A stretch of 64,000 nt of DNA from positions 1 to 64,000 of IMG/VR virus record IMGVR_UViG_3300028197_001952. One strand, given 5' to 3'. Made by a program: the position numbers and the translations under genes. Numbering within the stretch: position 1 is the stretch's first letter; every line of letters begins with the position of its first letter. The notes under the pieces were generated by a model. The model was not told the DNA's origin. It was given only the letters and a program-made list of their open reading frames with translations, and did not search any database. Source of the DNA: a virus. Of the stretch, positions 1-59,272 are shown piece after piece.

Positions 1-956
1 AGATTATCAATTGATGTACCACTATCACCACCACGAACAGGAAGATAGAAATCTTCTGTTAGGTTTTGCATATTGTACTTTAAATTATAATCACCAGTAT
101 TTCTATCAACAAAAGGAACTTTCTTCATTTTGTTAATAATTCTTTGCATATAGTTATCAACTTCTGTTGGAGGGATATTACCAATATCAATTTTGAAAAC
201 TCTCTTTTCAGGTGCTCTCATGATTCTGTGAATCAACATTGCATCTTCCATAAGAGATAATTGTTTCCACAATCTTCTAGCATTTTCAATCATTGATTTT
301 CCATATGGTAACCAGTTTGTATCTGCTAATAATCTAAAATGTGCAATTTCAAAATTTTCATATTCTTCCTTACCATTTGGGTCTTCAGTTATTTTGAACT
401 TAACTGAGTTTGGGTTGGTTGGGTCTGTTCTTTCTAATCTTTCTGTGTTGTAAACTGAATGAGGTGTTACGTTAACAATACCTTTGCCTTCTCCTACTTC
501 TAAACCTAAGAAGAAATCACCATACTTACACATATTTCTTACCCATGGCCATAAGTTGAATTCAACATTAAGGATATCATAGAATAAGTTATTTAAAATA
601 TCTTGTACTTTTTCATTATCAGAGTGAACCATAAGAGTATCACCAAATTCATTCTTTAGTGTAGATTCATCTGCGTATATATCAAGAGCCGATGCTAATA
701 TTGGGTCGTTATCCATTGCATCGTAATCTCTGAAAACTTCTCTACGAACTTGTTGGTATGCCATTGATTGTGCACCACCTGCTTGTTCGAAGAAACTTTT
801 TTGTATCTTCGTGTATCTATCTCTTAACGAGGATAGATTTGTTTGTTGTCTTTCATCACCATCAAAAACTTTTCTTTTACCATCCTTATCAACCGTTACG
901 ATTGCCTTGGTACGAAAGAGTTTTGTTAAACGTCCGAAAAATGAAGTATCTGCCAT
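1..956 (-). CDS. Portal protein (T4 gp20-like), truncated by window start
   Basis: Not in the ORF track because it runs off the window. Manual translation from ATG at 956 gives MADTSFFGRL...YDAMDNDPILASALDIYADES...EDAMLIHRIMRAPEKRVFKIDIGNIPP...EDFYLPVRGG, matching gp20 portal motifs; lies close to the terminase. Confidence 0.93.
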   Translation of the reverse strand, partial: MADTSFFGRLTKLFRTKAIVTVDKDGKRKVFDGDERQQTNLSSLRDRYTKIQKSFFEQAGGAQSMAYQQVRREVFRDYDAMDNDPILASALDIYADESTLKNEFGDTLMVHSDNEKVQDILNNLFYDILNVEFNLWPWVRNMCKYGDFFLGLEVGEGKGIVNVTPHSVYNTERLERTDPTNPNSVKFKITEDPNGKEEYENFEIAHFRLLADTNWLPYGKSMIENARRLWKQLSLMEDAMLIHRIMRAPEKRVFKIDIGNIPPTEVDNYMQRIINKMKKVPFVDRNTGDYNLKYNMQNLTEDFYLPVRGGDSGTSIDN

Positions 957-989: not shown

Positions 990-1382
990 TTACCATTTTC
1001 TACAAGACCAATATCTTGCTTTATGTTTTGGTCCAGGTGAATCACAATTGTGTCTTGCTCTGAAAGCTTTTCTTGCATCTGGATTATTCTTTCTAATCGA
1101 CATTGTTTTTTCTCCTGATTTCTTTGCGGAGCTTCCACCATGTCCAAAGTTCACCTTTACTACATTTCCTTTGGGGTTATTAACATATACTTTAAACTTT
1201 TTAACATCACCTTGCATTGGTTTACCAAGTTTAACTGTCCTACCTTGATACTCAGCTTCGTTTATGTCAGATTTATATTCTTTCATAAATTCAGTAAATT
1301 CTTTTACATCTTGATAGTTCTCTACTGTGTATTCTTCACAGTATTCTTGACTTTCTACTAATAAATTATATAATGATATCAT
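990..1382 (-). CDS. Small basic phage protein with an acidic N-terminal propeptide-like region; possible internal head protein
   Basis: 130 aa; acidic N-terminus ending DINE|AEYQG, then a basic domain ending RKAFRARHNC...KARYWSCRKW; between terminase and portal, with its own upstream ATATTTATA motif. Confidence 0.7.
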   Translation of the reverse strand: MISLYNLLVESQEYCEEYTVENYQDVKEFTEFMKEYKSDINEAEYQGRTVKLGKPMQGDVKKFKVYVNNPKGNVVKVNFGHGGSSAKKSGEKTMSIRKNNPDARKAFRARHNCDSPGPKHKARYWSCRKW

Positions 1383-1413: not shown

Positions 1414-3003
1414 TTATTTAATTAACCACGTTAGGTCTTCGTTTGTATCACCAACCCTCATTTTCCATGGGTTTTCATCCATAGAATCGTTACCTCCAAA
1501 TCCACTAGCCAATCCCTCGGTAGCTTGTCCTATCCCACCTAATGCCTGTTTGGTTAAATCCACTCCCTCTTGTCTTAATCGAAGTGCAGTATCTCTAACC
1601 CATAATCCAATTGATAATGACATTGTTAAATCATCATTATATCCTTTCATTCCTTCTGCTCGATTGCCATTCCATATAAAAGTAAATAATTCTTCTATCA
1701 ATCTAGAAGAACGTATCGTTACTGATTTTTCTCTGATATATTGTTCCAATTTAGAAATAATCAAAGGTCTAGTTTTAGCTGTTGTAGAAAAACCAGGCAC
1801 CATTCCACGTTCTTCTGCTCTGTATTTATTATGTAATTGATTTTCTACATCAACATATTTTAAATCTTTACTCATATAAAATAAGTTCTGATATGACCTA
1901 TCTATTACTTGTTGAATTACTGCCCAACCAATATTTGCGTTTTCTATTACTAACAATGCTTGATTATATTCAGTTGAAAGAGATACCAAGAAATTTCCAA
2001 AATCTTTTGTATCTAATTTTCCTTTATATTCTGCAACTTGTGTTGATTCTTCAATATCAATCACATGACATGCAGAATAATCTCCTCCATCTCCACGAGC
2101 AACATCCGCTACTACCATATAAGATTTTGTATAGTTTGGATATTCCCATTTCCATAGGTTTCCATCAAATCCAGTTTTTTCAATTGGTTCTTGTACATAT
2201 GTTTCTTTATAAAACATTAAAAGTTGAGGATCTATTACTGTATCACCAGAAGAAACAAAATCACAATCACATTCTTGTGCTGCTCCTTTTGGTCCTAATA
2301 AAACCTCCTGCTCATCTCTCCATGATTGGTCTCTTTCAGGATGAACACTCCAATGTAATCTAATTGTATTGAATGTATTTGTTTCATCTTCTGCACCTAC
2401 CCAAGTTTTGTGAAAGAAATTTCCTACACCATTTGGAGTTGATAAGATAATTGCGTTACCACCCGTTGATAATGTAGATTGGGATGATACCCATATATCT
2501 TCAATCTTATCAATAAAAGCTGCTTCATCAAATACCAAAAGGGATAGTGCTTCAGAACGACCAGCATCTCCTGCTGCAGAAGTTGCTTTTATCTGAGAAC
2601 CATTCGAGTATCTTAAGGATAGTTTGTTATCCTCTACTGTGTTTTGTTTTAACCACGATGGTAAGTACTGATTCATTACACGAACCTTCGTTACAAGGTT
2701 CTTAGCAACTTCTTGTTTGGTTGCAATTACTAATACGTTAAAATCTTGATTGAATAACATTTTCCAAAGTGAAAATCCAGCAGTTAAGGTAGAGATACCT
2801 GTTTGTCTGGATTTAAGGATGATGTTGTATCTATGTTCTGCGAATTGGTCTAAAGTTCTTTCTTGAAATTCATATAAATGAAATGGAATCTTACCACGAA
2901 CTGGATGTTGAATCATACAATACTTTTTCATAAAGTAGATTGGATCTCCAGCACATTTCTGATATTCAAGTTTTATTATATCCTTGAGTGATTGTTTAGC
3001 CAT
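1414..3003 (-). CDS. terL: Terminase large subunit (T4 gp17-like)
   Basis: Walker A-like KSRQTGIS, Walker B LLVFDEAAF, coupling motif STPNG, RNase H-fold nuclease motifs VADVARG and NDDL. Confidence 0.95.
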   Translation of the reverse strand: MAKQSLKDIIKLEYQKCAGDPIYFMKKYCMIQHPVRGKIPFHLYEFQERTLDQFAEHRYNIILKSRQTGISTLTAGFSLWKMLFNQDFNVLVIATKQEVAKNLVTKVRVMNQYLPSWLKQNTVEDNKLSLRYSNGSQIKATSAAGDAGRSEALSLLVFDEAAFIDKIEDIWVSSQSTLSTGGNAIILSTPNGVGNFFHKTWVGAEDETNTFNTIRLHWSVHPERDQSWRDEQEVLLGPKGAAQECDCDFVSSGDTVIDPQLLMFYKETYVQEPIEKTGFDGNLWKWEYPNYTKSYMVVADVARGDGGDYSACHVIDIEESTQVAEYKGKLDTKDFGNFLVSLSTEYNQALLVIENANIGWAVIQQVIDRSYQNLFYMSKDLKYVDVENQLHNKYRAEERGMVPGFSTTAKTRPLIISKLEQYIREKSVTIRSSRLIEELFTFIWNGNRAEGMKGYNDDLTMSLSIGLWVRDTALRLRQEGVDLTKQALGGIGQATEGLASGFGGNDSMDENPWKMRVGDTNEDLTWLIK

Positions 3004-3005
3004 TA

Positions 3006-3710
3006 TTATTTTTTCTTCTTAAATGAAATTTTCCAATACATAGAACCACCGATGTAAGGTTGTATAGTACTATTTACATTTAATGCACCAATATCCAATC
3101 CCCACATTTTATCTTGCTTATCTTTATATAAAAGGCCAAACTTTGCATTGTTTATAAAGTTAGTTTGGTCAAATCCAGCACCAACACCATAATAGAATAC
3201 TCGTTTAGGTAATTCCTTTACTACTTTTGTATTGTATATTGTAGGAACTTGAAAATTCCATATAACATCTCTACTTACTATTTGATTTTGAGATATAGTA
3301 TCAGTAAGAATACCAAATCCTAAAGTTGGGTTCGGTTTTGTTCCCATTGAATCAATTACAATTTCAGGAGCAAACTCATAAGTTAGTTTTAAAGTATCTT
3401 TAACTACATACTTTGAATAATAATCTTCTATTATTTTAAGAGAATCAACATCTGCTGGAATCTCTACTATTTTTTCAACTACTCTATCTACATACTTAGG
3501 TACATATTTTTTTACTTCTACAATTTTATTAATAAAAACAGTATCTATTTTTTGTTCTAATAGTTCATAGTCTTTTCCATCTACTTTTACTAAATTTTTT
3601 GCAGATTCTCCATCACCACTACATGCTCGCATCAATAGTATAACAACTATTAACCCTATTATTAGTATTTCCTTGAAATACTTTGATAAAATTTTAAAGA
3701 TAATGTTCAT
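3006..3710 (-). CDS. Membrane-anchored or exported protein (possible lipoprotein or spanin-like lysis protein)
   Basis: N-terminal hydrophobic helix ILIIGLIVVILLMRAC with a Cys; C-terminal amphipathic beta-strands ending YWKISFKKKK. Confidence 0.5.
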   Translation of the reverse strand: MNIIFKILSKYFKEILIIGLIVVILLMRACSGDGESAKNLVKVDGKDYELLEQKIDTVFINKIVEVKKYVPKYVDRVVEKIVEIPADVDSLKIIEDYYSKYVVKDTLKLTYEFAPEIVIDSMGTKPNPTLGFGILTDTISQNQIVSRDVIWNFQVPTIYNTKVVKELPKRVFYYGVGAGFDQTNFINNAKFGLLYKDKQDKMWGLDIGALNVNSTIQPYIGGSMYWKISFKKKK

Positions 3711-4350
3711 AATTTTTTTCCCTTAATTCTTCGAAGACGTTTTCTCTATTTGTTTCGAGTTCTTCTATTTCCTTATTACCAATATCAATCATTTCTTGTA
3801 TTTCAGCTTTTACTTCATCTACTGATTTTGGTAATTTCCATTTTTCAACAGTACCATCTTCATTAACATAATCATATTCTTCTTTAACTTCGGTAAGAGA
3901 GTGTTTTAGTTCTTCTAGTTTTTGTTTCCCATAAACAATCATCTTAGTCCAAATCTTATAATTCTGATAAGGAACAAATACTCCTTCTACTCTAAGAACA
4001 GTTTCTTTTTCAGCAGTACAAGTCATACAAAATCCTCCATTTTGGATAAATCTTATATCGTTATCTGTTTTCTTTACAGTTTTACACGTAGCGTTTTTAC
4101 AATTATTCTTTTCTTGAAGATATTTTCTTATTTTTTGGAATGCTTCGTGATTTTTACCTGTTTTTAATGTATATCCTTCCTTCTTTTCGAATTTATGATT
4201 TTCATCTTCCCACTTATCTCCTATATTACGAGATTCTTTTGCTTTAGTATATCCAACAGTAGTATTTTTATCATACTCACCTGTTTCAACCATATCAACC
4301 AACTTTCTTCTAGTTGGATGCATATATTTCTTTTTGAATTCTTTACTCAT
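3694..4350 (-). CDS. Hypothetical protein with Cys cluster and C-terminal coiled coil
   Basis: 218-aa ORF with CKNATC and CMTC; upstream ATATTTATA motif. Confidence 0.65.
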   Translation of the reverse strand: MSKEFKKKYMHPTRRKLVDMVETGEYDKNTTVGYTKAKESRNIGDKWEDENHKFEKKEGYTLKTGKNHEAFQKIRKYLQEKNNCKNATCKTVKKTDNDIRFIQNGGFCMTCTAEKETVLRVEGVFVPYQNYKIWTKMIVYGKQKLEELKHSLTEVKEEYDYVNEDGTVEKWKLPKSVDEVKAEIQEMIDIGNKEIEELETNRENVFEELREKNYEHYL

Positions 4351-4378
4351 TGTTACACATTAGGTTATACTTGTTATA

Positions 4379-4387
4379 TATAAATAT
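4379..4387 (-). promoter_or_regulatory. ATATTTATA motif (putative phage late promoter)
   Basis: 28 nt upstream of the 4350 start. Confidence 0.6.
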
Positions 4388-4411: not shown

Positions 4412-7400
4412 TTAGAAGAAAATACCGAGTATCTGATTTACAGATGCAAACGTTCCTGTTAACTTAAAGGTATTACCACCATAAACAAATACAATACCTT
4501 CATTTGGTACAATTTTCTTAGAACCACCAATAGATTGTAATCTACCAAGTTCTAATTTAAGTTTTTCTATCTTTTTTGGGTCACCTGATTTCTTAACATC
4601 TTTGATTGTCTTATCAATTCGTTTCTTTATATCACGAACTGCCTTATCAGGATTAACTGTTAGTGCAGATGAGGTAAACTCTAACACTTCTGCACCCAAA
4701 CCTAAGAATATTTGTTCAAACTTCATTAAGTTATTCTTACCAATCTTCTTTTGGTCATCTTTATCTGTTTTCTTAGCCCATTCTAATGTTTTTTCATCAG
4801 TAATGTTCTTTTTATCCAATCTAAACTTCTTATCAAAGAATGCCCATCTCTTAACTAACCCCATTTTGGTTTTATTATCAAGTGATGTGGGTGAATTCTT
4901 ATCAACCCATTGTGACCACCATGCTTGATGGTAATCAGCAACACCATCGGTATCCTTTAAACTAAATTCTTTCTGTAATTTAGATATCTGTGATGAGTAT
5001 TTGGATTTACTCTTACTTAAACTTTGTGATTTGGGTAAATTAACTACAGGTGGTCCTTGAATAGTGTAATTATCTTGTACATCTTTGTTTACTTGTTTAA
5101 TCATACCAGCTAATATTCTAGCTGCATCACCATTCTCTCCAATTGCGATTCCATCCATATTAAATTCCATAGTTCCATGAAATACCAATAATGCTTGTCC
5201 ATAAGGAATCACATTAACTGATGTTGGGTATATTACCTCAAGATTCATGAAACATGCACCTTGTTTGAATACTTTATCTCTTTGTTTTTCAGATAATGAT
5301 TTAATAGAATCTGAAAGGTCTTTCATTGCAAAGTTATATGCTTTTTCTAATTCACCTCTACCAGCAAATTTATCAGCAACTGCTTTAATATCTAAAGCAT
5401 TCTCACCTTTGTTCTTTAAGTGTCCTTTATTTCTTGCTGCTACTAATCTTCCATCTCTCCATGAAATAGCTAGTGCTTGGCCATCTGTTTTTTCTCTTGT
5501 GAACTCTAATGTACCTTCTAAAGCACGATTTACGATATCTTTAAGTTGTCCAAAGGTTAAATTGATATCAGTATCAAATGGATGAGACATATGCCCATAC
5601 GCACCACCTTCTTGAAGTAATTTAGATTCATTTATGTTTTCGTTGATTAGTTGTTGTGGTGTTTTAGTGTTTGGTATAAACATTTCAACTAACTTATTAT
5701 CAATATCACTTATTAACTGTTCTATTTCATTCATAAACTTTTCTTTTTCCTTATTTTTTATCCACACTCCCATTTCAGGTCCTTTAATATCAGATGGTAC
5801 ATCTTTTCCGCCAACAGATAATTTAAACTTTATGAATTTTTTCATATCCTTACCTATAATTTTACCAAACTTAATAATTTGTTCATCAGAAAGTGAAGTT
5901 TTATTTTGTAGTTTCTTAAATATTACAATTTCTTCTGATTTGAAGTGCTGTAGTGATACTAAAAATACAATATTATTTCTCTCATCATTGGTATAAGTTA
6001 ATTTGTTTAATTGTTTTCCTAATACAGATGGAGCATTCTTCTTAAGTAGTGATGAAATGAATAGAATATAATCATTATCCTTGATATAAGGTTTAGATAT
6101 CTTAAGATTTGGGAATATTAGTGAAGTAAATCCAATCTTATCATTCAACTCCATATACTTTTTAGTATCTTTAGCTGATTTAATTGATTTTATCACTTCA
6201 TCTCTCACTCTTTCATAACTAACTCCTTTTAGTGATGGATCCTTTTGTAATGCATCAAGTAATTCTTTATCTAAGTTTCCACCCAATCTTGCTTGGAATC
6301 TTAGAGCTCTTAATTTTCTCAATGGGTCTTCATCGAATCTCTCTGATGCCTTACCAACTGTTCTGATGTTTTTCTTTTTTAAATCTTTTATACCACCAAC
6401 TAAATCTACAATCTCTTTTCTATCTATATCATAAAACAAAGCATTGATAGTTAAATCTCTTCTTTTTACATCACCTTCAATATCTGTATAGTCAACAGCG
6501 GAAGGTCTTCTACCTTTACCAATATCTTTTCTAAATGTTGCAATCTCATGTCCACCAACTATTACAACTCCAAATGATTTTCCAACTTCAACGGTTTTCA
6601 TTCCTAAATCTTTTGCAATCTTTAACACCTCATCTGGTTTTGCATCTGTTGCTAAATCAAAATCCTTTGGTGATTTACCAAGTATCGCATCTCTTACTGC
6701 ACCACCCACCACATAAAGTTTCTTACCATTCTTTTTAAAAGCTTTTTGGATTTTAATAATATCAGATGGAACTTTAAGTTTCAATGTATTCTCACCCAAT
6801 CTTTGCAATCCTGCAGGTGGTGGTGTTAGTGGGTCATAACCAAAACATCTATTTCTATAATCTTGTTCTGATTCATTTGGTAATCTTTTACATTGTTCAT
6901 CTAAACCACTTCTATCGTGTTTAGAGAATTTACCTAATTTATCGAATGCTCTGAATGATTTTAGTTTATTTACTTTTTTAGGTGTCATTACAGATAGTTG
7001 TTTATATCTCATATGGTTTTTAACAATGTAAAATACATTTGCTGGATTACCACCAACGGATTCTATAAACTTTTTATACTTCTTTACTAAAGATGCAGAT
7101 ACTTTCTCATGTCCAAAGTGTGTAATGTGTCCTTTCTTTGGATGAATACCAGCAGTTTCATCTTTTCCTATATCATGGAACATTGCTGCAATTGCAATAT
7201 CAATATCATCTTCTTTGATTGAACGATTTACAACTACGATTGTGTGTTTAAGTACATTACCTTCAGGATGTTTATCTACTCTTTGACCGAAGTTCTTTAG
7301 ATTGTAAACTCTTTTTTGTAAATCCGAAGGCATCTTTTTGAATAAAGATTTGAAATCTGTGATTCCTAAATCTTTTAATCCTTCTTTGATTGGTTCATAT

Positions 7401-9973
7401 CCTCTTTTCTTAGTATCTTTTTCTTTGTTTTGATGTCCAGGTTTTTTACCATCATCATCAAAATCAATTGTATCTGGTTCAGCCATTGAACCTCTTTTTG
7501 CATATGATGAATATGTGTGATGTTTATTGAAATCTTTTTCAGCTTCTGATGATGGTTTACTAATCTTTACGCCTTTAAACTTATCTGTTACCTTAGTTGG
7601 TAAAGATTCTTTTAAGTTTGTTATCTTACTTGTTTTTTTCCAAGCCTTTTTATCAAATATAATATCATCCTGTACTAACAGTATCATTAATGCTCTACCA
7701 AACTTTAATTTATCTTTAATGTGAGTAAATTCTTTATTATCTTTTCTAGCCCACTTATACCATAATGCTGATAGAGTTAAAAACATCTTACCACCATTAT
7801 CTTTATTTTTTATAAGTTCTCTTTTGAACATACTTCTATTTTTGTATGCATATTTTTTAAAATCTAAATACACAAACTCATTAGGAGTATTCATAGGAAT
7901 GGGTCTACCTTCTTTTACAGTATTGTATTGATACTCTTTATTGGAATCTGCAGATTTTCTATAATCTTTATTTCTTTTATCGAACCTTTTCATATCTTCA
8001 GGTCCAGCATATCCTATCATTAGTTCATTGAATGTAGTTTTTTTAATTATCTTGCCTCTGATTGCCTCTTTGTGTACTTCCCTTTTCTGTTTAGTAGTAA
8101 GTTTATGATAATCAGGACCAAACATCTTATGTGCAATTACATCTAACATTTGAATCACTTTAACACCTCTAGTAACTTCCTTTTTACCTTGTGGATGTGC
8201 ATTTGTTGGTGAATCTTCATTCTTTTTTTCAAATTTTTCAACTTCCTTTGCACGTAATGCTGGTAAAAATCTAAATTTTGCTCTTTTTCTTACTCTACCT
8301 TTTTTTCTCACCACATTTTTATGAACTACTTGAGTTTGTGCAATAGATAAATCAGCTTTCTTAATACCAGGATATAATTCTTCGGAGAATTCAGCATAAA
8401 CTTGTCTGTATGCCATCTTGTAAGCAATCTTCTTAAGTTTAGAAAGAGGTTTTCTACGTTTCATTGTTCTTGCTCTTCTTCTAGCAATTTCCTTACCCTT
8501 CCCTGCCATTGCTGCTTTTCTTCTCAATCTATCAGCAGGTCGCATCTTTCCTCGTTCATCGAGTTCTTCATTCAAACCCATCTTCTCTCTCCACGAATCA
8601 AATGCATCATAATCATATTCTTGTTGTTGAGAATCCCATCCACATGAATGACATAAATACTTTTCACTATCATCAGATTCTATTTCCCATTGATGATTAC
8701 ACTTTTCACACTTTACTTCTGTTCCTGCAAGTTCAGCAATAAATCCTTCTTTTATCATTCTGAAGTTTACTACTTTTCTACCATTGATTGTTGGCATTCC
8801 ATGTTCATCTGTACCGATAGTTTTAATAACTGTTTTCTTATTCTTAAATCTACCAGTTAAAATAGTGTCTCCAACACTTACAGGTAATGTAATTGCTTCT
8901 TTTAATGAATTTTCAAATTCATCTTGTGATTTTTTATCACCTTTTTGAGAATCTAATGATTGTTCTTTTTCATCTTTATTAGTTTCCAATCCTTTTACTA
9001 TAGAATATCCTACTAACGATGCTTTTCTTGTTACGTGTTTGAACCATTTAGAATAAGCATCACTTGAATAGATATCTACTTGGTTAGTTGCAGTTTGTGT
9101 ACCAAGTACACCTGCTGGAAATGGAGTTACTGCTTTAACAGGACCATTTGGATATTCTGGATGTTCGTAATAATCTTCCAATTCCTTGGTAGTTATCATA
9201 TTTACAATTTCATATCCTATTTTTGCAGCTCGTTTTGCATTGATACGAGAAAATACTTCATAGTTTGGAAAAAATATATTTGGCCCATCATCTGATTGAC
9301 CGATTCCTACTGCAGAAGATTCATTTATCATCCATTCTTCAATTCTTTCTTTTGAAATGAAAATACCTTCGTTTAATTTATCAGTAATCATTTTAAAGAT
9401 ACCTGAATTAAACTTTCCATAAGCTCGTTTCTTAAAGAAATCTTTTTTATGATCATCAGAACCATTTGATAATCCATTTCTTACTTCAGTACCACTTACT
9501 GCACCACCAGACATTGGAGCTGCATAAACATAACCCCTATCTCTATATCCTTCCGATGGGTCTCCTTTGTATGTTTGAAAATATTTTCCACTATCAGGTC
9601 TTAATCTACTCTTATCTTTCTCACCAACAACAGTTACAAATGCAGTTGTTTCTTCATCGAACTTTTTAAGAATTTCTGTGGGTTTGTATGGGTCTCTAAC
9701 TTTATGTATTTTGGATTTTGGAATTCCAAACATAGTAGTCATAATTTTCACCTTCTCTTTGAAGTTAAAAGGTGATTTAGGTAATTGTACCTTATCAGAT
9801 GTACCAACATAAACGTTATCCTTACCGAACTTTTTTACAAGGTGTTGGTAAGTTCCATAGTGTCCTTTATGCATAGGTTGAAATCTACCTACATAAATAA
9901 CTACGGTCTTTTTAATAGGATTATCATCCTCAAGTAGTATTTGCTCTACTAAGTATTTTGAAAGTTCGCTCAT
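4412..9973 (-). CDS. Multidomain polyprotein: HIGH-family nucleotidyltransferase, Zn ribbon, basic region, HD hydrolase, CCA-adding/poly(A) polymerase-type NTase, RNA-ligase-like domain
   Basis: GRFQPMHKGH (HIGH); CEKC..CHSC; HPEGNVLKHT...FHDIGK (HD); LYVVGGAVRD..KDFDLA..RRDLTINA..EDPLR (class II tRNA nucleotidyltransferase); EKTDG..NLEVI..EGIVF..FKLTG (ATP-dependent ligase motifs). Confidence 0.85.
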   Translation of the reverse strand: MSELSKYLVEQILLEDDNPIKKTVVIYVGRFQPMHKGHYGTYQHLVKKFGKDNVYVGTSDKVQLPKSPFNFKEKVKIMTTMFGIPKSKIHKVRDPYKPTEILKKFDEETTAFVTVVGEKDKSRLRPDSGKYFQTYKGDPSEGYRDRGYVYAAPMSGGAVSGTEVRNGLSNGSDDHKKDFFKKRAYGKFNSGIFKMITDKLNEGIFISKERIEEWMINESSAVGIGQSDDGPNIFFPNYEVFSRINAKRAAKIGYEIVNMITTKELEDYYEHPEYPNGPVKAVTPFPAGVLGTQTATNQVDIYSSDAYSKWFKHVTRKASLVGYSIVKGLETNKDEKEQSLDSQKGDKKSQDEFENSLKEAITLPVSVGDTILTGRFKNKKTVIKTIGTDEHGMPTINGRKVVNFRMIKEGFIAELAGTEVKCEKCNHQWEIESDDSEKYLCHSCGWDSQQQEYDYDAFDSWREKMGLNEELDERGKMRPADRLRRKAAMAGKGKEIARRRARTMKRRKPLSKLKKIAYKMAYRQVYAEFSEELYPGIKKADLSIAQTQVVHKNVVRKKGRVRKRAKFRFLPALRAKEVEKFEKKNEDSPTNAHPQGKKEVTRGVKVIQMLDVIAHKMFGPDYHKLTTKQKREVHKEAIRGKIIKKTTFNELMIGYAGPEDMKRFDKRNKDYRKSADSNKEYQYNTVKEGRPIPMNTPNEFVYLDFKKYAYKNRSMFKRELIKNKDNGGKMFLTLSALWYKWARKDNKEFTHIKDKLKFGRALMILLVQDDIIFDKKAWKKTSKITNLKESLPTKVTDKFKGVKISKPSSEAEKDFNKHHTYSSYAKRGSMAEPDTIDFDDDGKKPGHQNKEKDTKKRGYEPIKEGLKDLGITDFKSLFKKMPSDLQKRVYNLKNFGQRVDKHPEGNVLKHTIVVVNRSIKEDDIDIAIAAMFHDIGKDETAGIHPKKGHITHFGHEKVSASLVKKYKKFIESVGGNPANVFYIVKNHMRYKQLSVMTPKKVNKLKSFRAFDKLGKFSKHDRSGLDEQCKRLPNESEQDYRNRCFGYDPLTPPPAGLQRLGENTLKLKVPSDIIKIQKAFKKNGKKLYVVGGAVRDAILGKSPKDFDLATDAKPDEVLKIAKDLGMKTVEVGKSFGVVIVGGHEIATFRKDIGKGRRPSAVDYTDIEGDVKRRDLTINALFYDIDRKEIVDLVGGIKDLKKKNIRTVGKASERFDEDPLRKLRALRFQARLGGNLDKELLDALQKDPSLKGVSYERVRDEVIKSIKSAKDTKKYMELNDKIGFTSLIFPNLKISKPYIKDNDYILFISSLLKKNAPSVLGKQLNKLTYTNDERNNIVFLVSLQHFKSEEIVIFKKLQNKTSLSDEQIIKFGKIIGKDMKKFIKFKLSVGGKDVPSDIKGPEMGVWIKNKEKEKFMNEIEQLISDIDNKLVEMFIPNTKTPQQLINENINESKLLQEGGAYGHMSHPFDTDINLTFGQLKDIVNRALEGTLEFTREKTDGQALAISWRDGRLVAARNKGHLKNKGENALDIKAVADKFAGRGELEKAYNFAMKDLSDSIKSLSEKQRDKVFKQGACFMNLEVIYPTSVNVIPYGQALLVFHGTMEFNMDGIAIGENGDAARILAGMIKQVNKDVQDNYTIQGPPVVNLPKSQSLSKSKSKYSSQISKLQKEFSLKDTDGVADYHQAWWSQWVDKNSPTSLDNKTKMGLVKRWAFFDKKFRLDKKNITDEKTLEWAKKTDKDDQKKIGKNNLMKFEQIFLGLGAEVLEFTSSALTVNPDKAVRDIKKRIDKTIKDVKKSGDPKKIEKLKLELGRLQSIGGSKKIVPNEGIVFVYGGNTFKLTGTFASVNQILGIFF

Positions 9974-9994
9974 ATGAATTATACAGTATCATTA

Positions 9995-10003
9995 TATAAA
10001 TAT
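9995..10003 (-). promoter_or_regulatory. ATATTTATA motif (putative phage late promoter)
   Basis: 21 nt upstream of the polyprotein start at 9973. Confidence 0.6.
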
Positions 10004-10159: not shown

Positions 10160-10738
10160 CTATTTTGAAAGTATTGGATTTGTACAAGGCCATTGCATGT
10201 TAAATTTATTACTATTCCATTTTATTTTTTGTTGTTTATTTAAATCGTTAAATTCGCCATCATATGCGAGTTTACAATTTATGATACTTTCCTCTTTCAT
10301 TACATAATACCCACTTGCAAACATAGGGGGAATTAGTGCTTGAGTACCAGTTTCTGGTGAAAGTATAAAAGATTCGGATTTACCATATTGTGGATTATTA
10401 TTTATATTACCCCCTCTTAAATCTAATACTACTAAATGAATCGTACCATGAATACATGATAATAATTTCCAAGTTTTGTTATCATAATACATTCCTCGTA
10501 AAACTCCATCTTTTGATTTACTGTATGTATCGTGTTTAAATTTTAGACCCATGTTTCTATCAGCTGCTGGTAAAATTCTATCATAATAATCCGAATGATA
10601 TATTGTTGATTCTGAACCACCACGTTCATAATTAGTTGATGGTTGTATTATTTTTACCTGATTTAATATACTTCCATGATAAAAATGAAAATCATTCCAA
10701 TCTCTTTCTTTATAAAATATACTACGTCCTTGTGCCAT
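10160..10738 (-). CDS. rmlC: dTDP-4-dehydrorhamnose 3,5-epimerase family (cupin) protein
   Basis: SKSKDGVLRGM, KLLSCIHGTIHLVVLDLR, LIPPMFASG and the C-terminal WP..PILS motif. Start placed at MAQGR (10738) to avoid a long overlap. Confidence 0.8.
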   Translation of the reverse strand: MAQGRSIFYKERDWNDFHFYHGSILNQVKIIQPSTNYERGGSESTIYHSDYYDRILPAADRNMGLKFKHDTYSKSKDGVLRGMYYDNKTWKLLSCIHGTIHLVVLDLRGGNINNNPQYGKSESFILSPETGTQALIPPMFASGYYVMKEESIINCKLAYDGEFNDLNKQQKIKWNSNKFNMQWPCTNPILSK

Positions 10739-11435
10739 AACTTTGCTTTTGTTTTTTAATAAAGGAATCCCAATCTTCTTGTGTTCCCCAATCAATGAAA
10801 TCTCGTGTACTTCTGTTGAAAAATGTTTTTCCATTTAATAACATCTTAAAAATTACATGTGATATGTAGATTTCTCCTTCTTGTTTTATGGATTCATATG
10901 TATCTACAAATTCCATTGCATCTGAAAATGTGTATAACCCACAACAGAAATCCGATGAAATTACATTCTTCTCCACAATCGTTAAAACTTCACCGCTATC
11001 ATTCTTTTTTATATATGATTTATTTCCAGGTGTTATGTTTGTACAATTATTTAAAGAATATGTACAAACTTCGTTTTTACCAATCTTATCTATTTTAAAA
11101 TAATCATCGGCATCCTTAATAAATATAGAACCTGTTATATTCTTTTTCTCAATTGCCTGTGAAACTGTATCCGATGCACTATGTGTATCGTTTTCAAGTA
11201 GTAATAATTCGAAATTTAAAACATCCTTAAATTGTAAATTTACCAATTCAATAAGTTCACTTGTTAAATGTCTTTTTAATGCAACTATAATAATTCGGTC
11301 AAACGTACTTAATGGTAATCCCTGAATTGATTCGAATACCATTAAATTACCACTCGGGTGTTCAAGTAACCATTTTGGTAGTTCAGTAGTAAATCTACTA
11401 CTTTTACCTGCACATGGTATTATAAGATTTCGCAT
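10722..11435 (-). CDS. Sugar/phosphate nucleotidyltransferase (GT-A NTP-transferase)
   Basis: IIPCAGKSSRF..PKWLL, KDAD, EK..IS, DWGT. Confidence 0.85.
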   Translation of the reverse strand: MRNLIIPCAGKSSRFTTELPKWLLEHPSGNLMVFESIQGLPLSTFDRIIIVALKRHLTSELIELVNLQFKDVLNFELLLLENDTHSASDTVSQAIEKKNITGSIFIKDADDYFKIDKIGKNEVCTYSLNNCTNITPGNKSYIKKNDSGEVLTIVEKNVISSDFCCGLYTFSDAMEFVDTYESIKQEGEIYISHVIFKMLLNGKTFFNRSTRDFIDWGTQEDWDSFIKKQKQSYGTRT

Positions 11436-31421: not shown

Positions 31422-31831
31422 ATTGTATCTGATATTAGCTTTTTAAACTTGGTTGTACTCCAACCATGTGAACGGTCTATCCAATGAATAAGTATACCCA
31501 AATCTTTTCCTGTATATGGATTATCTATATAATCCTCTCCTAAAAATCTTACATCAGGATTAATTGATTTTAATAAAAAATATAACTCTTCTTCGGTATC
31601 ATAAGTTAAGAAAGTAGGATTGGTAAAAAAATATTTTAACATACTCTTACGTTCTTCTGTATTTAAGATTGGTTTTAATTTTTCAGGTCTTTGTATTTGT
31701 GGATTATCATGTAACAAAATATATTGGTTCGTACATTTATTATTCATCTCTTCAAATAGCTGGATATAACCTGGATGTATCACATCAAAGTTTCCACAAA
31801 TTACTCCTATTTCTAATTTACTTACTTCCAT
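31418..31831 (-). CDS. TagD-like cytidylyltransferase (HIGH family)
   Basis: GNFDVIHPGY, KPI...ER, LGEDY, RSHGWSTT. Confidence 0.82.
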   Translation of the reverse strand: MEVSKLEIGVICGNFDVIHPGYIQLFEEMNNKCTNQYILLHDNPQIQRPEKLKPILNTEERKSMLKYFFTNPTFLTYDTEEELYFLLKSINPDVRFLGEDYIDNPYTGKDLGILIHWIDRSHGWSTTKFKKLISDTI

Positions 31832-44853: not shown

Positions 44854-44871
44854 AGAAATATATCTTTCCAA

Positions 44872-44880
44872 TATAAATAT
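44872..44880 (-). promoter_or_regulatory. ATATTTATA motif (putative phage late promoter)
   Basis: 18 nt upstream of the giant fibre gene start at 44853. Confidence 0.6.
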
Positions 44881-59260: not shown

Positions 59261-59263
59261 GTA

Positions 59264-59272
59264 TATAAATAT
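59264..59272 (-). promoter_or_regulatory. ATATTTATA motif (putative phage late promoter)
   Basis: Only 3 nt upstream of the 59260 ATG. Confidence 0.55.

Follow-up and report, generated by a model that had tools for sequence, protein, structure and literature searches.

What would a phage gain from a single, very long gene that sits among its head-packaging genes and strings together enzymes acting on the ends of RNA? This question is raised by a 64,000-nucleotide stretch of viral DNA (hereafter the window), the first 64 kb of the 77.6-kb IMG/VR contig IMGVR_UViG_3300028197_001952, whose completeness is estimated at 41%. On its minus strand, at 4412..9973, a single uninterrupted open reading frame (ORF) of 1,853 codons specifies a polyprotein of 211 kDa with an isoelectric point (pI) of 9.6. 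The answer that we favor, at a probability of roughly 0.5, is that this polyprotein would be a set of RNA-repair enzymes carried into the capsid by a short leader, diced there and ejected together with the DNA. The parts of this answer differ in firmness. The domain composition is secure, as is the existence of a large, unmodeled family of RNA-ligase-fold proteins fused to RNA-end enzymes; a function in the repair of RNA (tRNA) ends, combined with capsid targeting and proteolytic dicing, is probable as judged from sequence.

The initial annotation of this DNA had claimed a 1,853-residue ORF at this very place, and the ORF is real: it contains no internal stops, and the proposed domain borders agree with ours to within a few codons. 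Relatives of the same or similar architecture, 1,735-1,930 residues in length, occur on independent contigs, and because such similarly built long proteins exist there, the ORF is not an assembly artifact. We are thus dealing with a genuine, modular and presumably late gene. By all appearances, its host genome is that of an uncultured jumbo phage of a distantly T4-like lineage. Its large terminase (TerL) is 56% identical to that of Microcystis phage Mel-JY01, 55% to that of Flavobacterium phage immuto and 47% to that of the huge phage LR756508, and about 31% identical to those of RM378 and of T4-like cyanophages; no near-identical DNA was found among GenBank phages. All genes of the window lie on the minus strand and its G+C content is about 30%. 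The window contains no tRNA genes; the complete relatives, which were reached via related loci, are 173-289 kb long and carry 4-28 tRNA genes each.

The evidence that carries the RNA-repair part of our proposal begins at the C-terminus, where residues 1456-1853 (4415..5608, minus strand) make up the unmodeled RNA-ligase-fold domain, with Lys1495 embedded in the motif EKTDG. The four ligase motifs claimed for this region, EKTDG (residues 1494-1498), LEVI (1578-1581), EGIVF (1825-1829) and KLTG (1837-1840), are all present, and family alignments reveal their key residues to be invariant or nearly so. In domain numbering, K59, D61, G62, R78, N79, R103, D116, E143, H163, Q197, R273, E389, G390 and K401 are invariant in 20 aligned stand-alone homologues, and among 36-37 long members the aspartate and glycine of motif I are invariant and its lysine is conserved in at least 90%; a GHMxHPFD segment is conserved as well. 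An AlphaFold model derived from the stand-alone alignment (predicted local distance difference test score, pLDDT, 87.5; predicted template-modeling score, pTM, 0.82) arranges motifs I, Ia, III, IIIa, IV and V in this order on the strands expected for a nucleotide-binding fold, such that R78, E143, H163, E389/G390 and K401 fall on or by strands 73-77, 138-145, 159-168, 390-395 and 398-402. Motif V (KLTG) has a single lysine. In the model, only about 15 residues follow motif V and the OB domain is absent, as in RNA ligases, and a helical insert of about 180 residues (domain residues 181-385), for which we know of no counterpart, separates motifs IIIa and IV.

Structure comparisons bear out the predicted ligase fold. 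The nearest solved structures are the RNA ligases Rnl5, Rnl1, REL1, Rnl2 and Trl1, with Z scores of 7.6-8.6. A search of 48,161 chains that was independent of Foldseek returned RNA ligases in all of its top eight places (Z 7.3-8.2, root-mean-square deviation 4.1-4.8, 185-206 residues), with NgrRnl at 8.2, TbREL1 and T4 Rnl1 at 8.0, T4 Rnl2 at 7.9 and Trl1 at 7.7, and the alignments to the top RNA ligases span the whole model. In a second comparison all 50 rows were ligases or capping enzymes, the RNA ligases (Z 8.6-6.5) ranking above the DNA ligases (6.8-5.0) and the capping enzymes (about 5.3); Foldseek against the PDB yielded a best E value of 6.5e-3, with most rows, and all of the best-ranked ones, being ligases. 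As modeled, the C-terminal domain therefore fits into the superfamily of covalent nucleotidyltransferases, where RNA ligases are its closest relatives. The narrower label "Rnl2-like" did not survive. Neither the Rnl1 (PF09511) nor the Rnl2/Rnl5 (PF09414) profile matches the domain, nor does any other RNA-ligase hidden Markov model (HMM), and residues 1437-1853, the C-terminal 417, have no match in Pfam (E up to 1), NCBIfam (up to 0.5) or PHROG; hhalign against the Rnl5-type ligase of one relative (G003) gave a probability of 1.4% and aligned motifs IV-V only; and the model includes neither the C-terminal helical domain of Rnl1/Trl1, nor the C-domain of Rnl2, nor the N-terminal OB domain of Rnl5. 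Because the profiles are silent, the hhalign probability is this low and the topology of the accessory domains differs, we assign the domain to no named Rnl family.

Two other identities suggested by profile searches of the PDB were rejected. A match to the C-terminal part of eukaryotic eS6 (E about 1e-4), which covers residues 156-301 of the ligase alignment (window positions ~4760-5200) inside the helical insert, probably reflects lysine-rich composition, and a match to LigA near motif I (E about 3) is not significant. A distant structural match in BFVD connects the ligase model with A0A0M6VVW4, a 591-residue "cytidyltransferase-like" protein of Synechococcus phage S-PM2, a cultured T4-like cyanophage (E 5.7e-5, TM-score 0.42); its gene does not lie within the initial 100 kb of that phage's record, a part that holds baseplate, tail-fiber and head genes.

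Upstream of the ligase-fold domain lie two modules whose families are readily recognized. The first is an HD phosphohydrolase (residues 865-1061; 6791..7381, minus strand) of the type that is built into the multifunctional CCA enzymes of bacteria. The HD assignment of the initial annotation is confirmed by PF01966 (residues 917-992, 30.5-34.6 bits against a cut-off of 22); the metal-ligand motifs (H...HD...H...D) can be read as HPEGN..H, HDIGK and HFGHE, and the best NCBIfam matches fall in the HD parts of CCA models (TIGR02692 positions 251-346, PRK10885 positions 216-334). The HD domain of E. coli Cca acts as a 2',3'-cyclic phosphodiesterase/phosphatase, and the resemblance of our HD module to the HD parts of Cca fits such an end-healing role. 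The second is a class II nucleotidyltransferase (NTase) of the CCA-adding/poly(A) polymerase type (residues 1062-1455 with a core at 1068-1413; 5609..6790, minus strand) with head, neck and short body. It, too, had been predicted, and is matched by PF01743 over residues 1086-1204 with an E value of 4e-30; Pfam matches the RNA-binding neck weakly. Its motifs A-E are readable (GGAVRD...DFD, RRDLTINA and EDPLRKLRALRF), CCA enzymes in the PDB are hit at 5e-32 and PHROGs label it a tRNA nucleotidyltransferase.

How common are such fusions? HMMER, run in full over 1.84 billion representatives, yielded 1,761 relatives of the ligase domain (counted as representatives at 50% identity), 549 of them at E<1e-30. 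Among the best 150, the ligase domain is C-terminal in nearly all and is preceded by anywhere from 0 to about 1,500 residues; the listed relatives with source names carry no informative ones, most being called "hypothetical protein". GenBank phages contribute only three records out of 50,697, namely Mel-JY01, the only cultured carrier, with a homologue of 639 residues (WWT39297), and two uncultured huge phages; in one of the latter, LR756508, the 915-residue homologue (5608-8355) carries a ParB/Srx-like N-terminal segment, a variable module, before its NTase and ligase. No close relatives turned up in 185,579 prokaryote genomes, in a single-protein query that is sensitive to close relatives only, and we found no prior description of the family in literature that did not include the survey of RNA repair systems by Burroughs and Aravind (2016). 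Among 151 family members, the ligase domain is partnered by a HIGH NTase in 104, by a CCA module in seven and by an HD module in four. These modules appear in the orders HD-CCA-ligase, CCA-HD-ligase, CCA-NTase-ligase and NTase-CCA-ligase, and because the orders differ, the fusions must have arisen independently. A Pfam scan of 36 long members further identified a P-loop kinase (AAA_33/Zeta_toxin type) in four, a 2H phosphoesterase in one, DUF5661 in seven and an intein in one. It is this repeated, independent fusion to RNA-end enzymes that serves as our main argument that the substrate of the ligase domain is RNA, and specifically tRNA. The link to RNA is further supported by the tRNA genes of the complete relatives and by two of these genomes (G001 and G004), in which the polyprotein supplies the sole CCA domain and a PF09414 ligase is lacking.

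The second part of our proposal, packaging, starts from the other end of the polyprotein. Its first ten residues, MSELSKYLVE (9944..9973, minus strand), are hydrophobic at positions 4, 7 and 8 and carry a glutamate at position 10. In T4, the first ten residues of IPIII suffice for capsid targeting, with positions 4 and 7 serving the targeting and positions 8 and 10 the cleavage (PMC9026906), and our leader fits this pattern at the IPIII positions. A second LLE of the polyprotein N-terminus ends at residue 15. NTase-first homologues retain the leader and some family members lack it altogether, and because such members do without it, it does not belong to the NTase fold. The same leader occurs on 34 of 56 stand-alone ligase proteins (MIRLKNILNE-VLLKE-GGAxGH) and on the family of p130, a protein encoded between TerL and the portal gene (990..1382, minus strand) that begins with MISLYNLLVE; among the 465 methionine starts of the whole contig, the pattern is confined to the polyprotein ORF and p130. 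The leader thus appears to behave like a portable signal, a short N-terminal peptide common to three unrelated mature proteins. p130 itself, which belongs to phrog_7595, a group with no assigned function, and whose homologues in related loci keep MIS(L/M)xxLLxE, is a candidate small internal head protein.

If the chain were cut in the prohead, sites resembling the end of the leader might be expected where its modules meet. The polyprotein contains 27 [LIVM]xE sites, 17 of which fall in eight border zones that together make up 10% of its length (P 4e-11, an optimistic value given that the zones were drawn after the domains were known). The corresponding counts for control motifs are 2 of 31 for [LIVM]xD and 4 of 77 for [LIVM]xK, and the 345-residue CCA core has no [LIVM]xE site at all. 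Independently of the zones, homologues retain the hydrophobic-x-Glu sites 10, 202, 359, 409 and 1455, and two relatives (L029 and L016) carry extra modules inserted exactly after sites 409 and 469. A T4-type prohead protease (Peptidase_S77, PF03420) is encoded by all four complete relatives, in one of them (G001) about 8 kb downstream of the polyprotein gene. Finally, a promoter-like motif, ATATTTATAT, lies 22 nt upstream of the polyprotein ATG (9994..10003, minus strand). It occurs ten times in the window, exclusively on the coding strand, against an expected 2.3 +/- 1.7 and a count that none of 100 shuffles reached; seven of the ten sites stand no more than 30 nt upstream of start codons, including those of the polyprotein gene, the downstream gene p218, a giant fiber gene and a gene for a 1,798-residue protein. 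The genes behind this motif are presumably expressed late. Examples on the minus strand are found at 4378-4387, 9994-10003, 44871-44880 and 59263-59272; read on the opposite strand, the motif resembles the T4 late promoter TATAAATA. The initial annotation had called the polyprotein virion-packaged and injected on the grounds of gene position only; the leader, the seams, ATATTTATAT and the protease now lend its packaging indirect support, and loading into the capsid followed by processing seems to us the most likely reading, with the odds leaning modestly in its favor.

In the mechanism that we propose, the leader, acting like a T4 capsid-targeting sequence, would bring the chain into the prohead, where the T4-type prohead protease would cut it at the hydrophobic-x-Glu seams. 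The pieces would then exit the capsid with the DNA, so that repair enzymes would be present before phage gene expression. There, the HD module would strip 2',3'-cyclic or 3' phosphates off damaged tRNA ends, the CCA module would restore the acceptor end, and the ligase module would self-adenylylate on Lys1495 and seal breaks between 5'-phosphate and 3'-OH ends. The 5' kinase step would be supplied by another protein. To speak of a complete heal, ligate and re-tail kit, as had been done initially, is therefore an overstatement: the polyprotein has no Walker A motif and no polynucleotide 5' kinase, and because this kinase is absent, the polyprotein alone could not seal a 5'-OH end.

That missing kinase is one of several points that weigh against our proposal, as is the fact that the border zones were defined in retrospect. 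With respect to packaging, the total number of [LIVM]xE sites, 27, is not elevated over the chance expectation of 25.7 +/- 4.3, and the hydrophobic-x-Glu preceding GGAxGH could belong to the ligase domain instead of being a cut site. No gene for an S77 protease was seen on the contig itself, which is 41% complete and ends inside the portal gene, and we found no virion proteome in the literature for a phage carrying this gene. With respect to repair, the fold similarity of the ligase domain is middling (Z about 8, best Foldseek E 6.5e-3), and no sequence profile from Pfam, NCBIfam, PHROG or the PDB ties the domain to a known ligase family. Profiles cannot distinguish CCA-adding from poly(A) polymerase specificity for the class II module: the NCBIfam CCA model PRK13299 (1.3e-50) and the PcnB model (3.4e-50) match it about equally, both under their curated cut-offs. 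Even as a CCA enzyme, the module could simply mature phage tRNAs. Moreover, two relatives (G002 and G003) possess a canonical Rnl gene, and in G003 a calcineurin-like phosphoesterase, an AAA_33 kinase, an Rnl5-type ligase with an N-terminal OB domain and a 245-residue CCA enzyme form a repair cluster (C1:172500-177500) that adjoins an array of 25 tRNA genes and is additional to the NTase-ligase protein, which therefore is not simply "the" tRNA repair system there. We also considered whether separate CCA and Rnl genes are strictly lost where the modules are fused. Two complete relatives, G001 and G004, fit this idea, as they encode CCA nowhere but in the polyprotein and lack a PF09414 ligase; G005, which has neither CCA nor Rnl, shows that the complementarity is not strict. 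The ligase-like family is thus not simply a substitute for the known kit and may play a specialized role.

Several of these points can be accommodated by an alternative scenario, namely that the polyprotein, expressed late and never packaged, combines enzymes for maturing and repairing tRNA and acts in the cytoplasm, its leader being a mere N-terminal helix and its hydrophobic-x-Glu sites ordinary linker composition. The known phage RNA-repair enzymes, such as T4 Pnkp and Rnl1, work in the cytoplasm of the infected cell, the many tRNA genes of the relatives need CCA maturation, and the position upstream of TerL perhaps reflects conserved gene order and nothing else; the chance-level [LIVM]xE total and the family members devoid of a leader point the same way. 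This scenario does not, however, predict that the same leader of 10+5 residues would be carried by three unrelated domains (NTase, ligase and p130), that the seams would be kept while the module content varies, or that [LIVM]xE sites would show a strong positional bias that is not seen for [LIVM]xD and [LIVM]xK. The basic block in the middle of the polyprotein also resembles internal head proteins, albeit weakly, in charge only. On balance, we consider the cytoplasmic scenario unlikely, if worth keeping in mind, and continue to favor capsid-packed repair enzymes.

A different emphasis is invited by the N-terminal enzyme. Right behind the leader, residues 11-202 (9368..9943, minus strand) constitute a HIGH adenylyltransferase domain that is NMNAT/NaMNAT-like by profile search and fold. 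A HIGH nucleotidyltransferase had been claimed here, and PF01467 duly matches residues 26-113 (E 4.8e-5, 24 bits against a cut-off of 21), rising to 27.1 bits when the domain is searched as a separate segment; the motifs GRFQPMHKGH and SGTEVR are present and PHROGs label the N-terminus "cytidyltransferase". The family profile finds NadM (2qjt, 1.5e-5) and the archaeal NMNAT MJ0541 (2.3e-5) in the PDB. The model of residues 1-200 (pLDDT 80-94) has a Rossmann-like fold, for which Foldseek ranks 1-19 are all nicotinamide or nicotinate mononucleotide adenylyltransferases (best E 1.5e-5, probability 1.0), followed by PPAT, and in cultured phages BLAST retrieves NadM-type NMNAT/Nudix proteins as relatives. 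The domain falls far short of curated NMNAT cut-offs (26.6 vs 127 bits for PRK01153, 22.3 vs 181 for TIGR01527), and we therefore call it NMNAT-like and not NMNAT. A 287-residue cytidylyltransferase in the virion proteome of S-CREM2 was considered as a family member and shows no sign of belonging. Beside a ligase, the HIGH domain could supply nicotinamide adenine dinucleotide (NAD+) or adenylate locally, or perform some other adenylyl transfer; the gene content of the relatives gave a local supply no backing.

Taken further, the core of the polyprotein might be centered on NAD+, comprising either an NAD+-using ligase with its own NAD+ regeneration or a device against NAD+ depletion by the host, with RNA repair being secondary. 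The closeness of the NTase domain to NadM/archaeal NMNAT and NadD in both sequence and fold, its standing as the commonest partner of the ligase domain (104 of 151) and the single-lysine motif V are compatible with this idea, as is the LigA match near motif I, the sole and, as mentioned above, non-significant one. We nevertheless find it improbable: the NMNAT-model scores lie far under the cut-offs, a LigA-type domain Ia and any other LigA-like features are absent, none of the relatives has Tpt1/KptA, and Nampt is found among them only in G002, which has a small NTase gene of its own adjoining it. Still less tenable is the notion that the ligase-fold domain is a DNA ligase that seals nicks in replication or prepares the DNA for packaging, since, even though it would account for the place of the gene beside those for terminase, in the packaging cluster of every related locus, and even though three of four complete relatives (G001, G002 and G004) lack a recognizable ATP- or NAD-dependent DNA ligase and DNA ligases are also structural neighbors (Z 5.0-6.8), the OB domain is missing after motif V as in RNA ligases, RNA ligases consistently rank above DNA ligases in the structure searches, the domain is fused to enzymes that act on RNA ends (CCA, Cca-type HD, 2H and kinase), and many T4-like phages depend on the host ligase.

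Between the NMNAT-like and HD modules, the polyprotein contains several segments of less obvious function. An acidic middle region (residues 203-359; 8897..9367, minus strand) with a low-confidence fold is kept in many family members and is followed by a small beta, SH3-like module of about 50 residues (8747..8896, minus strand), the position of which varies among relatives. Next comes an acidic Zn-ribbon module (8555..8746, minus strand), where the expected cysteine pairs are found as CEKC at residue 422 and CHSC at residue 441 and where HMM matches are weak (HypA 0.0027, Zn_ribbon_8 0.12). The Arg/Lys-rich block noticed earlier corresponds to residues 474-688 (7910..8554, minus strand) and is indeed highly basic, with a pI of 10.5 and a net charge of +38. 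Two short modules that match no family (residues 689-864; 7382..7909, minus strand) complete the series.

The surroundings of the gene are well conserved, which likewise speaks for packaging. In a survey of gene order across 80 related IMG/VR loci, the arrangement polyprotein gene-p218-(p234)-TerL-p130-portal recurs, with TerL in 75 and p218 in 78 of the 80; in Mel-JY01 and LR756508 the homologue is likewise followed by a p218 homologue, and TerL lies 2.6-3.3 kb downstream. In the window, p218 (3694..4350, minus strand) directly follows the polyprotein gene and encodes a Cys4 Zn ribbon and a C-terminal coiled coil that match no known family. It is possibly a partner of the ligase or a small terminase, and because it abuts TerL in some loci it may be the latter rather than the former. 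Between p218 and TerL (1414..3003, minus strand) lies p234 (3006-3710, minus strand), which has a hydrophobic, transmembrane- or signal-like start and is present in 43 of the 80 loci; the portal gene (3..956, minus strand) is partial, the contig ending inside it. Upstream of the polyprotein gene, 10160-34363 (minus strand) is a long stretch of sugar-nucleotide and glycosyltransferase-like genes, including a match to dTDP-4-dehydrorhamnose epimerase (10160-10834) and a second CTP_transf_like gene of the window at 31481-31801.

Taken together, we tentatively propose, with slightly more doubt than confidence, that a widespread aquatic lineage of T4-like jumbo phages may pack into its capsids a protease-diced RNA repair system that includes a new RNA ligase family. 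If so, tRNAs damaged by host defenses would be mended ahead of all phage gene expression. To our knowledge, all phage countermeasures against tRNA-cutting systems known so far are enzymes synthesized once infection is under way. Carrying repair enzymes in the particle along with the DNA would be a new tactic and the first example of RNA repair packaged in advance, and the ligase family would add a new branch to the RNA ligase superfamily. Irrespective of delivery, the ligase-fold family is large and unnamed, has an unusual topology and an NMNAT-like partner, and is a candidate new RNA ligase and tool. Together with the seams retained among homologues, the leader, being portable, might in turn amount to a readable code for capsid cargo in uncultured T4-like phages.

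How does this polyprotein compare with known systems? T4 Pnkp and RNA ligase 1, like Trl1 of fungi and plants, repair tRNA cut by anticodon nucleases in a heal-and-seal manner. The polyprotein shares with them the covalent-lysine nucleotidyltransferase fold with motifs I-V and the association with end-healing partners, which in its relatives extend to the kinase (P-loop) and phosphoesterase (2H) types known from Trl1, and, as in Rnl1/Trl1, a helical accessory module lies beside the catalytic fold. It differs from all Rnl families in having no HMM match and in carrying the helical module between motifs IIIa and IV instead of after motif V; healing would be performed by an HD domain in place of HAD, calcineurin-type or 2H enzymes, with the kinase absent, and, in contrast to T4 Pnkp and Rnl1, everything is contained in a single chain joined to a CCA enzyme and an NMNAT-like enzyme. 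E. coli Cca likewise combines a class II head bearing motifs A-E with an HD domain of the kind found here. In the polyprotein, however, the HD domain precedes the head (the CCA-HD order also occurs in relatives), the two modules may be separate cleavage products and the scores lie under the equivalog cut-offs.

With regard to delivery, the closest concept is that of the polyvalent proteins of phages and conjugative elements, which combine many enzymatic domains and are predicted to be processed and delivered with the DNA (Iyer et al. 2017, PMC5512222). Like them, our polyprotein comes from a gene neighboring virion genes and unites enzymatic domains of unrelated kinds in a single chain. It departs from them in its theme of RNA repair and in that our domain scans of it found no MuF, zincin or other hallmark domains; the 2H domains of polyvalent proteins were never seen with RNA ligases (PMC5512222). 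The internal proteins IPI-III and Alt of T4, finally, share with it the ten-residue leader (hydrophobic at 4, 7 and 8, glutamate at 10), a basic module, genes located beside head genes and, in the complete relatives, the S77 prohead protease. They differ in that the cargo here would be a 211-kDa assembly of about ten modules, with enzymes of the RNA-repair type, as opposed to restriction inhibitors or an ADP-ribosyltransferase.

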